64,000 nucleotides of DNA from a bacterium. Lineage in GTDB: Bacteria; Patescibacteriota; Patescibacteriia; UBA10025. Of this stretch, positions 12,761-16,175 are shown in pieces. A model generated the notes under the pieces. That model worked only from the letters and a program-made list of their open reading frames with translations, was not told the origin of the DNA and ran no database searches. The position numbers and the translations under genes are program-made. The stretch covers positions 154,910 to 218,909 of the forward strand of contig JAKAGM010000001.1 in the NCBI GenBank assembly GCA_021815445.1. The letters are read 5' to 3'. Every line of letters starts with the position of its first letter. Within the stretch, counting starts at the first letter, position 1.

Positions 12761-12796
12761 GAAGACAAGAAAAAACCGCGGCCCCCAAGTCCGCGG
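12761..12796 (-). terminator. rho-independent terminator downstream of the M23/FG-GAP gene
   Basis: Hairpin CCGCGG-cccccaagt-CCGCGG followed on the minus strand by a T-run (plus strand aaaaaa at 12769-12774). Confidence 0.55.
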
Positions 12797-12825
12797 GATT
12801 GAATGATCATAGGACGATTTCACGT

Positions 12826-15405
12826 TCACTTCAGCAGAACCATCTTCTTAATCTCCACCGCCTGATCGGTGACGAGACGGTAGAAGTACATGCCCGATGC
12901 GTACTGTAAAGCGTTCCACTGTGCAGTGTGCTCTCCGGCAAGCTGGTTCTCATCGGCAAGAGTCTCAATCCTCTGGCCAAGGATATTGTAAATGTCCAAC
13001 CTGACATGAGTACCCACCGGAAGAGTGTACCTGATCGTCGTGCCCGGGTTGAACGGGTTCGGGTAATTCTGGGACAGGGAGAATGTCCGAGGCAGAGTAT
13101 TGTCTCCTCCATGTGCCGTGATCTTAGGCGAACCGGGAATGGTGCGCCTAATGACGATGCACCTGTCCGCATACCCGTCACTGTTGTAATCCAGCCAGAA
13201 TTCTTGGGTGGACGGGCGGAATACGCCGATGTTGGTGCCGCAATTACCGGTCCAGTCGCCGACGATTGGCGAATCACCCGCATCTCCATACGTCCGGGAG
13301 AAGTCAGCAACGTGGTCGTTATCGTAATCCAACCAGAAGGTCCTGGTAGAAGGACGGTAAATACCGATGTTCCAGTCCAGGTCGCAGTCCCAATCACCAA
13401 CAAGAGGGATATCACCGTTATCCCCGAAAGTGACGGAAAAATCAGCTACACCGTTGTTGTCGTAATCTAACCAGAATGTCCGGGTAGAGTGGCGAAAGAT
13501 TCCTATCCGGGTATAGCCGTTGCCGAGCCAATCTCCGGCTAGAGGAATATCGCCGCCATCACCATAGGTGATGCCGATGTCCATCTGGCCGTTGTTGTCG
13601 TAATCCAGGTAAAACACCCGGTAGGCCGGACGATAGAAACCGACACTGTAGTAGGTATTGCCGTCCCAGTCACCGGCCAAAGGTTTGTCTACGGCTGAGC
13701 TGTAATGAAGCTCCAGCTCCGTATACCCGTCATTGTTGGTGTCCAGATAGAAGGTTTGCGTCTCGTCGGCATAGACACCGACCTCGAAGATCCCGTCCCC
13801 GTTCCAATCACCTGCGATGGGGGTGACGGTCAAGTTGGCGAATGACTCAGAAGAGTCACTGCCTGCGGCGTGATAGGTCCCGCCCGAGCAGGTTCCAAGC
13901 ACGTCAACCGCCGGACTGCCAGTCTCATAGATACGATGTTGAGTACCGGCGCTGTTCTTGAAGTCCTGGCACCACTTCCCATTCAAATAGAAACGATCGA
14001 TGGTGGCGCAACCAAATAGGTTTACCCCACCAAGTTCATCGTAGCGGGATTTAATGCTCCCATACACCCAGTAGGCCTCGTTCGTGGCCGAAGTATTGCA
14101 CTCCCAGTTCTCTTGGTCGTACATGATCCTGCCGGATCCGTCGTCGCCACCAGTGAATTCCTGAATCAGGATACTGCCGGAAAGAACATGGACCTGACCG
14201 TCATTCCCAGAGCTTGGGTTCCCTACATCGCGGCGGGCGCCGTTGCGGTCATAGGCATCGGTAAAGAGGTAGGAGTACTGGTTGTTCCATCCGGAAGAAG
14301 TCCAGCCGGGTGTCGTCGTCGTGTTGCACTTGATGGTGGTTCCGTCCTGGATGTACCCTTTCTGGAAATCCTGACGCCAGTGGTCTGGGTTCTCGGTGTA
14401 CTTGTACCGGTTGGTGATCGGCATTCCAAGGGCCGAATTCGGCCCTCCCTGTCCTGACGGACCGTCTGAACAGCTGGGCGTTGGACAGCTGCCGCTGCAT
14501 TCTGCCTCAAGGTTGTCCCACGTAGCCCATTCTTGATCGCCGACACAGTAGGCATGTCTTGCGCCACCTAGGGCGTCGTATACGACCGCGCCAGCATAGA
14601 AGCCGCCACCGTAAACCGTGCGATAACAATTGACAGCAGTGTTTGTGCCAGACTGGTAAAGCGAGTTTGGATTGTACGCATGGTACCAACCAATCGATCC
14701 AGCCGTTCCACCAAGCCATTGATTCGGCGACTGTGACACGGCGTATGGGTTGCGGTCATTCAGAGCAGTAGATTTCCGGAGGTCAATGATGTTGGAGTTG
14801 ACAGAGGTGTAGAAAGTGCTCGCAGGTGGGCTGCTTGAGCAGTCGCACGGATCGGGGTACCCATCGGTGACGGTTTGACCAAGGTAGTTCTTAAAATCAA
14901 CATACACCTCAGTCATGTCCTTTGTCGCAGGGTTCGCCGTCCCTTGCGTGTTGTAGTGTATATGCGATGGCCATTGGTCATCCGTTACGCCTGTTGTCCC
15001 GCAGAATCCAACCACTTGCCCCTTCTCAACCTTCTCGCCGACGCTCACGACAATCTCTGTTTGGTGTGCCAGCCGGCCATAGTAGCCGTCCCCATAGTCA
15101 ATTAGGACAACATTGCCATACGGACTATTTGCTCCACTCTGTTGCTTGGATCTTCCAGCAAACACTATTCGCCCTGAATCTGGAGCTAGAAGTGGATACC
15201 CCAGGTCGTTGGCGCCGGTTCCATAATTGTAGTCCCATGCGTCTTCGCCGGAATGGGATACGCTCCCATTCCAGCCTTGCGCACACCACCATGTATCACC
15301 TGCCATAAACGGTAGCCCGATGTCTGGCGGCGTTGCTAAGGCTTTCGAACTGCCCAGAGCGACTATGACAGCCGCTGCCACGAAACGACCGATCGTCCTC
15401 TTCAT
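12826..15405 (-). CDS. secreted multidomain protein: M23 (LytM) peptidase + FG-GAP/VCBS-like repeats + type IX secretion system C-terminal sorting domain
   Basis: 859 aa. Signal peptide. M23 motifs ([12 protein letters not shown] ... [11 protein letters not shown] ... SHIHY). Five ~46-aa repeats of P[LI]AGDWDGNG...G[IV][FY]R....F[YW]LDYDNNG. The final ~80 aa ([40 protein letters not shown]...[11 protein letters not shown]) match the Por_Secre_tail/T9SS CTD consensus closely. Strong AGGAGG RBS. Confidence 0.8.
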   Translation of the reverse strand: [859 protein letters not shown]

Positions 15406-15446
15406 GACACTCCTCCTGTTGGTTGTGAACGTGCTGTTTTAGTGAG

Positions 15447-16175
15447 CTATTTGCCTATTGACTGCAGAACCGCTGCGCATGTATCGCGGTAGGCTAGAAA
15501 GTCACCCCGTGGTGATACATCAAGATCGTAGTAGTAACTGAAGCGGATCATGTTGCTGTTACTTTGGAAGAAGTACGACCTCCCTTGAGTCATGTTAGGC
15601 CCTTGTTCCGTTGCTAGAACGCCATCGCGCGTGTTGATCGCTTGAGGTACCATGGTGGACACGTTGAGGTCTTCACTGCCTGAAGTGCCGTAGATGTTAC
15701 TTGCATTGATCCAGTCAACAATACTTGCTACTGGGTGCGTAACCGGGTAGGCTGATATTGTGCAGTCGGCTGCAGCAGGAAAATCCAGAGTATTGTTTGG
15801 TGGACTTATAACCTCCTGATCTGTGGGGAGGTTGTCTTTATATTGTCCCTGAGTTACTCGCTTACGCTGCAGTGTCCAGTTCTTCGGAATAGCAATCGTA
15901 AATCCGTACTTGTCCTCTTGAGTTGTCCATGCACTCGTATCGACTGAGTTCGTGTTTGATAGAGTGTTGCTGCTGGCGTTGACTGACGTGTTGACGTTCT
16001 GAGTTCCAGTGGTGCCTGCATTAGCTGCGGCGTTCGTGTTTGACTTGGTCTTTTCTTTTTGCCACCAGAAGTAAGCGCCCGCGCCGACTGCTATAATGAG
16101 AATGATTACCAAAATGACCCACATAAGTTTCCTTGATGAGCCCTGTGGCGTGGGCTGTGGTGTTGGTGTGTCCAT
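15447..16175 (-). CDS. hypothetical membrane-anchored protein with N/T/S-rich linker
   Basis: 242 aa. TM helix (LMWVILVIILIIAVGAGAYFWW), then low-complexity segment and a globular C-terminal domain. Same strand as the M23 gene. Confidence 0.45.
   Translation of the reverse strand: MDTPTPQPTPQGSSRKLMWVILVIILIIAVGAGAYFWWQKEKTKSNTNAAANAGTTGTQNVNTSVNASSNTLSNTNSVDTSAWTTQEDKYGFTIAIPKNWTLQRKRVTQGQYKDNLPTDQEVISPPNNTLDFPAAADCTISAYPVTHPVASIVDWINASNIYGTSGSEDLNVSTMVPQAINTRDGVLATEQGPNMTQGRSYFFQSNSNMIRFSYYYDLDVSPRGDFLAYRDTCAAVLQSIGK

Follow-up and report, generated by a model that had tools for sequence, protein, structure and literature searches.

The C-terminal domain (CTD) that tags type-A cargo of type IX secretion systems (T9SS) is usually read as diagnostic of both type IX secretion and the Fibrobacterota–Chlorobiota–Bacteroidota (FCB) superphylum. 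What, then, is such a domain doing in bacteria thought to lack an outer membrane? The question is raised by a 64,000-nucleotide stretch of contig JAKAGM010000001.1 (assembly GCA_021815445.1, forward-strand positions 154,910 to 218,909), hereafter the window, from a member of the Patescibacteria, or candidate phyla radiation (CPR). A first-pass annotation of the interval 12761-16175, made from the sequence alone, described one 859-residue M23 peptidase/FG-GAP protein with a T9SS CTD inserted between rpmE and rpsB, and explained it either as cargo acquired from an FCB organism or as a protein whose CTD serves a different export or anchoring route. It missed that the interval holds a two-gene unit, a hydrolase open reading frame (ORF; 12826..15405) and a partner ORF (15447..16175), both on the minus strand, and that the same genome carries a second copy of this unit. 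We think it probable, if well short of certain, that the two genes form a CPR cassette of hydrolase and partner whose T9SS-type CTD was exapted as a T9SS-independent surface or targeting module. Of the two earlier proposals, the evidence therefore favors the second, as a role that we infer rather than observe.

The sorting domain and the enzyme that carries it

From its N- to its C-terminus, the hydrolase comprises a signal peptide, an M23 domain, an LGFP-like domain, FG-GAP-like repeats, a linker and a T9SS type-A CTD. This layout draws on the ORF call, Pfam and NCBIfam matches, and a full-length AlphaFold2 (AF2) model with clear domain boundaries and a mean predicted local distance difference test (pLDDT) score of 78; all coordinates given for cassette features refer to the minus strand. 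The CTD occupies residues 778-859 (12829..13074) and ends in [10 protein letters not shown] followed by the stop codon, so that it forms the exact C-terminus of the protein with no residues after it. The earlier identification of this tail held up against profile hidden Markov models (HMMs): PF18962 (Por_Secre_tail) matches residues 781-856 with 35.3 bits against a gathering threshold (GA) of 27, and the NCBIfam model of the "T9SS type A sorting domain," TIGR04183, reaches 43.3 bits where the cut-off is 23 (E 2.6e-11). As in T9SS cargo, the domain sits at the extreme C-terminus behind a linker modeled with low confidence (residues 741-777, 13075..13185; pLDDT <50 over residues 740-774). Its predicted fold is a seven-strand immunoglobulin (Ig)-like beta-sandwich that superposes on the CTDs of PorZ, mirolase and PorU. 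A Foldseek search with the CTD alone returned T9SS CTDs among its matches at E ~1e-3, with generic Ig domains scoring equally; the fold thus agrees with the assignment without settling it, and the claim rests on the HMM scores. Foldseek with the whole model matched mostly M23 domains and generic propellers, and its top match to PorZ, which had a poor template modeling score, was not used.

The opposite end of the protein appears suited to export through Sec, another feature in which it would resemble T9SS type-A cargo. Read from the sequence, residues 1-25 ([27 protein letters not shown]; 15331..15405) form a predicted Sec-type signal peptide with a basic K/R n-region, a hydrophobic core and an A-L-A cleavage motif (SSKALA/TPP), without a lipobox; AF2 places a helix at residues 2-17, followed by a low-confidence stretch. 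The Peptidase_M23 domain (PF01551) is matched over residues 67-155 (14941..15207), within a structural domain of about residues 30-180, with 55.1 bits against a GA of 28.7, and its HxxxD (HSGED), AH and HxH (HIH) motifs are all intact. The best sequence match in the PDB is zoocin A (5kvp, E 1e-8), whose metal-binding and catalytic histidines and aspartate align with those of the hydrolase, and Foldseek matches for this part include lysostaphin, LytM and EnpA. Because its motifs align to the catalytic residues of zoocin A, the enzyme looks active, and it is probably catalytically competent rather than a degenerate LytM factor.

Between the two ends lie a central LGFP-repeat-like domain (residues 195-505, 13891..14823), delimited from family conservation, a family profile and the AF2 model (pLDDT mostly 85-96), and, after a low-confidence stretch at residues 507-525, five 46-residue FG-GAP/VCBS-like repeats with GDW-x-G-D/N motifs (residues 527-740, 13186..13827; pLDDT 56-85). 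The repeats were recognized from the family profile and from the DNA itself, which repeats with a period of 138 nt in five copies. The central domain is the most conserved part of the family and contains nearly all of its invariant or near-invariant columns. The family profile matches the wall-binding LGFP domain of C. glutamicum PS1 (6swz) at E 1.3e-6; Pfam LGFP (PF08310) scores 17.7 bits on the window hydrolase alone, under its GA of 22, and is carried by the homologue P0009. For the repeat region, the same profile matches an integrin alpha-V propeller (E 2e-6) and a secreted esterase (E 2e-23); the window hydrolase itself stays under every Pfam FG-GAP threshold, with PF13517/PF01839 present in many homologues. 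The earlier label of an M23/FG-GAP protein thus stands outright for the peptidase and, for FG-GAP, has support from the family profile, the repeats and the homologues rather than from a Pfam match of its own.

The expression signals previously ascribed to the gene were also recovered. A strong Shine-Dalgarno sequence, AGGAGG, precedes the hydrolase ATG by 6 nt (15412..15417), and a terminator-like hairpin (CCGCGG..CCGCGG plus U6; 12770..12796) begins 30 nt past the stop codon. The hairpin is found in the minimum free energy and centroid folds alike, and the fold of the region as a whole is no better than that of shuffled sequences.

Origin of the domain and of the genome around it

A search of 5.8 billion proteins identified 37 relatives that align with the hydrolase beyond the CTD, at 33-58% identity. 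They share an architecture of an M23 or CHAP head, the central domain, usually FG-GAP/VCBS repeats, and a Por_Secre_tail. All eight homologues with a named source derive from Patescibacteria, Candidatus Kerfeldbacteria or Parcubacteria, and the full-length relatives, more than 30 in number, are without exception on Patescibacteria-labelled or similar metagenomic contigs, the largest of 1.1 Mb. TIGR04183 matches 29 of the 32 aligned members, and the CTD stops 0-1 residues from the C-terminus in every member with a CTD match (33/33). When family and non-family CTDs are compared, the nearest neighbor of a family CTD is another family member in 30 of 33 cases, and the window CTD is 54-67% identical to those of the family and at most 54% identical to others. 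Both groups have the consensus QNYPNPFNP…LGQ…AG.H…W…SG.YFYRL…KKMLLLK.

Proteins matched through the CTD alone are of FCB type, among them multihaem cytochromes and glycosidases, with names that include Ignavibacteriaceae, Latescibacteria and Marinimicrobia. This affinity is confined to the CTD of about 80 residues; the other domains of the hydrolase match only relatives that are labelled Patescibacteria or lie on similar contigs. Since only the tail has FCB affinity, we read it as an old domain capture and not as a recent whole-gene transfer, and the sequences suggest that there were probably one or a few such captures from an FCB-type protein, followed by diversification inside CPR. Phmmer and the family HMM found no CTD in the window besides that of the hydrolase. 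On similar contigs, CTD-type tails occur on a 625-residue fn3-like protein whose Por_Secre_tail scores 31.5 bits (L101:18675-20552, minus strand) and on a 327-residue Spondin_N protein with a FlgD_ig/CTD-like tail (L097:16446-17429); the tail is therefore not hydrolase-specific in these genomes.

We assign the 877-kb contig that carries the hydrolase, of 877,264 bp in ENA assembly ERZ27237554, to the Patescibacteria. Among GTDB species representatives, its RpsB best matches Patescibacteria, Buchananbacteria, Uhrbacteria and Doudnabacteria metagenome-assembled genomes (MAGs) at 52-60% identity, and the block dnaE(-), ftsW-g7044-rplY(+), prmC-prfA-rpmE(-), rpsB-tsf(+) is common to the window and eight MAGs. 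RpsB matches, ten-gene synteny and named homologues all indicate Patescibacteria, and not the FCB-superphylum organism expected of T9SS cargo. The CPR-like character that the first-pass annotation had noticed is borne out by these matches and by the synteny, and so are three of its particulars: EF-Ts has 197 residues, DUF3048 occurs twice, and DUF5667 adjoins an extracytoplasmic function (ECF) sigma factor. The Pfam families called in the window and on either side of it are of a kind typical for small genomes.

At the divergent rpmE/rpsB junction, 0.3-2.5 kb separate the two start codons in the eight syntenic relatives, against 3.9 kb, with two genes in between, in the window. The rpmE/rpsB gaps of the relatives are empty or hold unrelated ORFs, and no partner or CTD homologue was found in them. 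Gap contents vary among relatives, and thus the junction is a variable spot and the cassette extra material within it; the insertion described earlier is real, with the correction that it consists of two genes. A promoter-like site for rpmE, TTGACA-17-TATGAT (12677..12705, minus strand; 11/12 consensus matches), marks the boundary between the cassette and the rpmE-prfA-prmC operon. The junction appears to be a recurrent accessory-gene site in Patescibacteria MAGs. Mutually unrelated ORFs of 213-318 residues are found there at L003:8520-10001, L005:9065-10001, L010:4094-6611 and L014:8732-10001.

A recent transfer of the whole gene from an FCB organism, or a chimera produced in assembly or binning, would explain the near-consensus FCB-type CTD, the presence of extra material at a conserved junction and a GC content slightly over the window mean. 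Both explanations are nonetheless largely refuted and, in our judgment, almost certainly wrong. The comparison of codon usage that had been proposed for 12826-15405 cannot distinguish the gene from its neighbors: under a model built on the rest of the window, the hydrolase has a synonymous-codon log-likelihood z of +0.17 and the partner one of -0.97, GC at third codon positions (GC3) is 0.627 against 0.555 +/- 0.053, and the composition of the cassette is native, not foreign. A chimeric join, which the first-pass annotation had held open as a possible refutation, is contradicted by the recovery of the identical protein and context on seven contigs of 0.2-1 Mb and by a paralogue 150 kb away on the same contig. 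Against acquisition from an FCB organism stand also the CPR-like contigs of up to 1.1 Mb on which all full-length relatives lie, the clustering of family CTDs in a subgroup of their own, the Patescibacteria type of the non-CTD domains, the purifying selection on the CTD in this genome, and the fact that the vehicle, where one is visible, is a Patescibacteria integrative element.

Alternatively, the protein might be genuine T9SS cargo, in a lineage that has an outer membrane and possibly a reduced T9SS encoded elsewhere. At the level of sequence the protein has every hallmark of a T9SS substrate, and the regions that were read cover about 10% of the contig. We find this scarcely credible. An outer membrane has been proposed to be absent from Patescibacteria, whose type IV secretion system (T4SS) is of the monoderm type (PMC12102498), and T9SS has been described as confined to the FCB superphylum (PMC12398890). 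An 877-kb genome, moreover, leaves little room for the more than 15 genes of the machinery together with outer-membrane biogenesis. No outer-membrane, lipopolysaccharide or T9SS families were called by Pfam over about 90 kb (~10%) of the contig, and no sortase-like, PorU-like or other T9SS-like gene recurs as a neighbor across 23 related loci. Because the lineage is thought to be monoderm and the regions examined contain no T9SS gene, the CTD is most likely not a T9SS signal.

A membrane-anchored partner and the exchange of modules

The other gene of the cassette, which encodes 242 residues, is found 41 nt upstream of the hydrolase, and the two are probably co-transcribed. The partner has a short N-terminus, one transmembrane (TM) helix, an N/T/S-rich linker and a PsbP_2-like ectodomain. 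The window partner itself (g242) has no significant Pfam match; the PsbP_2 assignment comes from PF18933 (GA 27), which scores 51 bits on a 54%-identical homologue (P0088) and 37.5 bits on the counterpart at locus L082. In every context first examined (the window, L082, L083, L085, L086/87, L088 and L089), a gene for 218-313 residues precedes the hydrolase on the same strand, at a gap of about 40-105 nt. These upstream proteins share an MD..P.P N-terminus, one TM helix, the N/T/S-rich linker and a domain beginning with W..Y.N..YGF.I..P..W. Using an HMM built from them, we found the partner directly upstream, at a gap of 43-105 nt, in about 20 of the 22 distinct loci where the hydrolase gene is complete and the sequence before it is available. 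A plain homologue search with the partner gave three matches, and the pairing is visible only through the locus-derived HMM. It is kept where the catalytic head is a CHAP domain (L083) and in members without the CTD (L112, L114/115); since it survives both head swap and CTD loss, the partner is tied to the hydrolase and not specifically to the CTD. The ectodomains of the partners evolve fast, and the partner is unrelated to FemABX-type immunity proteins.

The second cassette lies about 150 kb away on the same 877-kb contig (L089:10001-12751, ~17.1-19.9 kb of the record). It consists of a 224-residue partner paralogue (P0089), the only distant homologue of the window partner, followed after 85 nt by a 663-residue protein with M23 and Por_Secre_tail domains. 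Its neighbors are ftsA, ftsZ, nrdR with ribonucleotide reductase, a polysaccharide deacetylase and HtrA; there are no mobile-element genes at this locus. A 473-residue gene upstream of this cassette (L089:8445-9866) has an N-terminal TM and linker region of the partner type.

Comparison of the two hydrolases reveals a composite relationship. Their last 351 residues, spanning repeats, linker and CTD, align without gaps at 80% identity (85% for the repeat region alone), and their N-terminal halves cannot be aligned. A shared C-terminal module joined to unrelated N-termini implies that the repeat and CTD unit moved between the two enzymes some time ago. By the Nei-Gojobori method, dN/dS between the paralogues is 0.09 in the repeats, 0.29 in the linker and 0.26 in the CTD, at dS of 0.65-1.2; with ratios this low, the unit has been under purifying selection in both copies and constitutes a functional module in this genome. 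The two partners are alike only in the TM segment, the linker and the first strand. This single comparison gives an indication that the partner ectodomain diverges along with the catalytic half of the hydrolase and not with the shared C-terminal module.

On the reading that we favor, the hydrolase would be a Sec-exported M23 endopeptidase of the lysostaphin/zoocin type that cuts peptidoglycan cross-links. The CTD, taken from an FCB-type protein in one or a few captures, would have been retained without a role in T9SS export, and together with the FG-GAP repeats it may hold or target the enzyme on a cell surface, be it the producer's own envelope or that of a host. The partner, a small membrane-anchored protein with its PsbP_2-like ectodomain on a long N/T/S-rich tether, would serve in immunity or regulation, binding the enzyme and restraining it close to the wall of the producer itself. 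It is a likely binder of the catalytic part because its ectodomain diverges with the catalytic half and not with the CTD.

Several observations weigh against this reading. The full type-A consensus, the terminal KKMLLLK strand and the free C-terminus are all kept, as recognition by a machinery would predict, and a passive Ig module would not obviously need the complete consensus and a free C-terminus. The members at L112 and L114/115 keep the partner without the CTD, so that some of the family's function does not require that domain. The proposed role of the partner in immunity or regulation draws on gene order and one within-genome comparison, and the wall that the enzyme targets may be the producer's own or a host's. 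In addition, only about 10% of the 877-kb contig was read, so that the absence of T9SS is not established genome-wide, and the taxonomy of most homologues depends on MAG labels and contig content.

Because the T9SS consensus and the free C-terminus are strictly retained, more exotic readings stay alive, in which machinery of CPR bacteria or the T9SS of a host recognizes the domain. We consider it unlikely that Patescibacteria have an unrecognized use for the type-A CTD, either as a T9SS-independent sorting or anchoring tag or as a mimic that docks on the T9SS surface machinery of FCB hosts, with module shuffling and an integrative element accounting for its spread among CPR lineages. A specifically host-directed version, in which the CTD is a ligand for the PorV shuttle or the PorU/PorZ attachment complex of an FCB host and the enzyme of an epibiont docks on, or even becomes attached to, the host's outer surface, strikes us as very improbable. 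It would make sense of a full type-A consensus and free C-terminus under purifying selection in a lineage without an obvious T9SS; the nearest non-family CTDs do come from Ignavibacteria, Latescibacteria and Marinimicrobia-type proteins, and M23 enzymes are classic weapons against foreign walls. However, no host is in evidence, recognition of a CTD from outside the cell is without precedent, and an M23 enzyme would still need to pass the host's outer membrane. The CTDs on non-hydrolase fn3 and Spondin_N proteins of similar contigs also speak against it.

Mobile contexts, biological role and known relatives

At three loci the cassette is located inside one conserved module: L082, on a Kerfeldbacteria contig of 1.1 Mb, L085 and L088. 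This module comprises a VirD4/TraG-like ATPase, Replic_Relax, a RuvC-like protein, a small ORF, a helix-turn-helix regulator, the cassette, a tyrosine integrase and a large serine recombinase, and the integrative elements or islands extend over L088:184-14048, L082:556-16783 and L085:1609-6841. Identities between loci are 42-45% for Replic_Relax, 56-58% for the RuvC-like protein, 78% for the tyrosine integrase (L082 vs L088) and 47% for the serine recombinase. Parts of this gene set recur at L096/97, L107, L120 and L121, and about a third of the cassette loci lie in integrative elements or islands. Defence-like genes of the OLD-family, UvrD and HSDR_N types adjoin the integrative element. Elements that bear a relaxase are reported to be rare in Patescibacteria (PMC12102498). 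A phage origin of the family was discarded, as no relatives were found in IMG/VR.

This context raises the possibility that the hydrolase serves DNA transfer, opening the wall for a Patescibacteria integrative, mobilisable or conjugative element, with the window copy a remnant after loss of the element. Monoderm conjugation hydrolases use M23 and CHAP domains (PMC12102498), the same heads as are found in the present family (compare PrgK of pCF10, CwlT of ICEBs1 and VirB1-like enzymes), and several loci, L082, L085 and L088 among them, adjoin a VirD4-like coupling ATPase, Replic_Relax and recombinases. We nevertheless regard this role as improbable. A tblastn search with 13 element proteins found no element genes in the 64-kb window, no convincing att-like direct repeats flank the cassette, and the window hydrolase is not encoded within a T4SS or conjugation gene cluster. 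Most loci lie outside recognizable elements, as do both in this genome, which are in ordinary chromosomal settings; a type IV coupling protein with Replic_Relax neighbors only 3-4 of about 22 loci, and neither VirB4 nor channel genes were seen beside any cassette copy. The window protein further differs from the conjugative enzymes by its extra surface-binding modules and its CTD.

A housekeeping function departs from our favored reading in biological role only. The enzyme would then be an autolysin for the producer's own division or wall remodeling, held in the producer wall by LGFP, FG-GAP and CTD, and the partner an activator or spatial regulator following the logic of FtsEX-EnvC/PcsB. Of the alternatives this is the one we take most seriously, even as we think it unlikely. 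The second cassette sits beside ftsA, ftsZ, the polysaccharide deacetylase and HtrA without mobile-element genes, many other loci likewise lack element genes, codon usage is native, and the LGFP-like domain resembles a self-wall anchor. However, about a third of the loci are in integrative elements or islands, M23 and CHAP heads are swapped, several paralogues can occur per genome, and partner ectodomains evolve fast; such features fit accessory or conflict genes better than core division machinery. The evidence is divided between the two roles: a bacteriolysin-like weapon directed at a host or competitor wall is favored by a distribution that is accessory and mobile, by the swapping of heads and by the fast evolution of partners, and an autolysin by the ftsAZ-adjacent second copy and the native composition. 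The epibiont weapon against host peptidoglycan that the first-pass annotation suggested is a possibility.

Other features of these loci and of the window were recorded in passing. Non-element cassette loci (L083:1896-8485, L086:507-5766, L090:3261-8154, L092 and L101) share a neighborhood in which HisKA_7TM/GAF histidine kinases recur at 7 loci, a FeeM/Acetyltransf_5 N-acyl-synthase-like gene at 4 and ThiF at 3, and which could be a module for signal synthesis and sensing. A wall-related cluster at window positions 36760-41867 encodes an S11 D-Ala-D-Ala carboxypeptidase fused to DPBB_1, a MacB-type ABC transporter, and FtsE/FtsX with FtsX_ECD. FtsEX commonly controls wall hydrolases, and the FtsEX of the window could conceivably be linked to the M23 enzymes. 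The organism has other candidate surface proteins, namely a 661-residue Beta_propel (PF09826) protein (window 61944-63929, minus strand) and, just past the window, a 715-residue Big_7/TSP3/Big_13-like protein (L123:18503-20650).

The surrounding genes include metabolic functions that are relatively rich for an 877-kb CPR genome. At 23280-26356 and 32739-34564 the window encodes an Iso_dh-family dehydrogenase beside a fused aconitase-family protein (possibly LeuB/LeuCD-like) and the large and small subunits of a NiFe-hydrogenase; at L083, too, the cassette has NiFe hydrogenase and Hyp genes at its flanks. The tandem DUF3048 genes (window 8079-10429) lie between rplY and prmC and have no tblastn match at that place in the syntenic relatives L003, L004, L006, L014 or L022; the pair could be a further insertion specific to this lineage within the conserved block. 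In L003, L004, L006 and L007, tsf matches the 197-residue EF-Ts of the window in two separate segments, which suggests that EF-Ts of these relatives is longer or carries an insertion and that the short form may be derived. Contigs L002, L007, L009, L012 and L014 are titled "uncultured Gammaproteobacteria bacterium" and carry Patescibacteria-type rpsB, in L014 with the whole CPR synteny block; their titles are evidently wrong or placeholder taxonomy.

Set beside established type-A cargo such as gingipain RgpB, mirolase and RemA, the window protein has the same Sec-type signal peptide, flexible linker and seven-strand Ig-like CTD of about 80 residues at the exact C-terminus, with the QNYPNPFNP ... 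GxYFYRL ... KKMxLLK consensus and HMM scores over curated cut-offs. It differs in belonging to a Patescibacteria genome, of a lineage thought to lack an outer membrane and with no T9SS gene in the regions examined, in the CPR-specific family to which the rest of the protein belongs, and in its PsbP_2-like membrane partner, which has no T9SS counterpart. Class III bacteriocins, or bacteriolysins (lysostaphin, zoocin A, enterolysin A), resemble it in other ways. They too are secreted M23 endopeptidases with intact zinc-binding and catalytic motifs, an N-terminal catalytic and C-terminal targeting layout, a tightly linked second gene and a frequent location on mobile DNA. However, their targeting modules are SH3b or TRD domains rather than LGFP, FG-GAP and CTD, and it is by analogy that the window enzyme might kill. 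Lif and Zif are FemABX-type cross-bridge modifiers; the linked gene of bacteriolysins is of this type, whereas the one found here is membrane-anchored and PsbP-like.

The CTD by itself has been named before. Some members of the family bear the Prokaryotic Genome Annotation Pipeline (PGAP) name "T9SS type A sorting domain-containing protein," and the entry MFA5052300.1 [Patescibacteria group bacterium], like P0006 and P0026, belongs to the same family and has the same CTD. The bare domain call is thus already part of public annotation; what is new here is the cassette, its spread and mobility, the exchange of modules and the evidence for selection. In the literature searched, no paper links CPR, Patescibacteria or Parcubacteria with T9SS or its CTD or reports the cassette, its mobility or the exchange of modules, and one apparent match concerned SAR406, not Parcubacteria.

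These findings bear on how the domain is read and on the biology of the bacteria that carry it. Counts of CTDs in metagenomic bins are not usable as evidence for a T9SS, and the CTD would have a second function or a second recognition partner. CPR bacteria would own a modular and partly mobile arsenal of secreted wall hydrolases with dedicated partners, which bears on how CPR epibionts divide, attach to their hosts or attack them. As a defined tag on a defined enzyme, the cassette may also offer a handle for studying the sorting of surface proteins in CPR cells.

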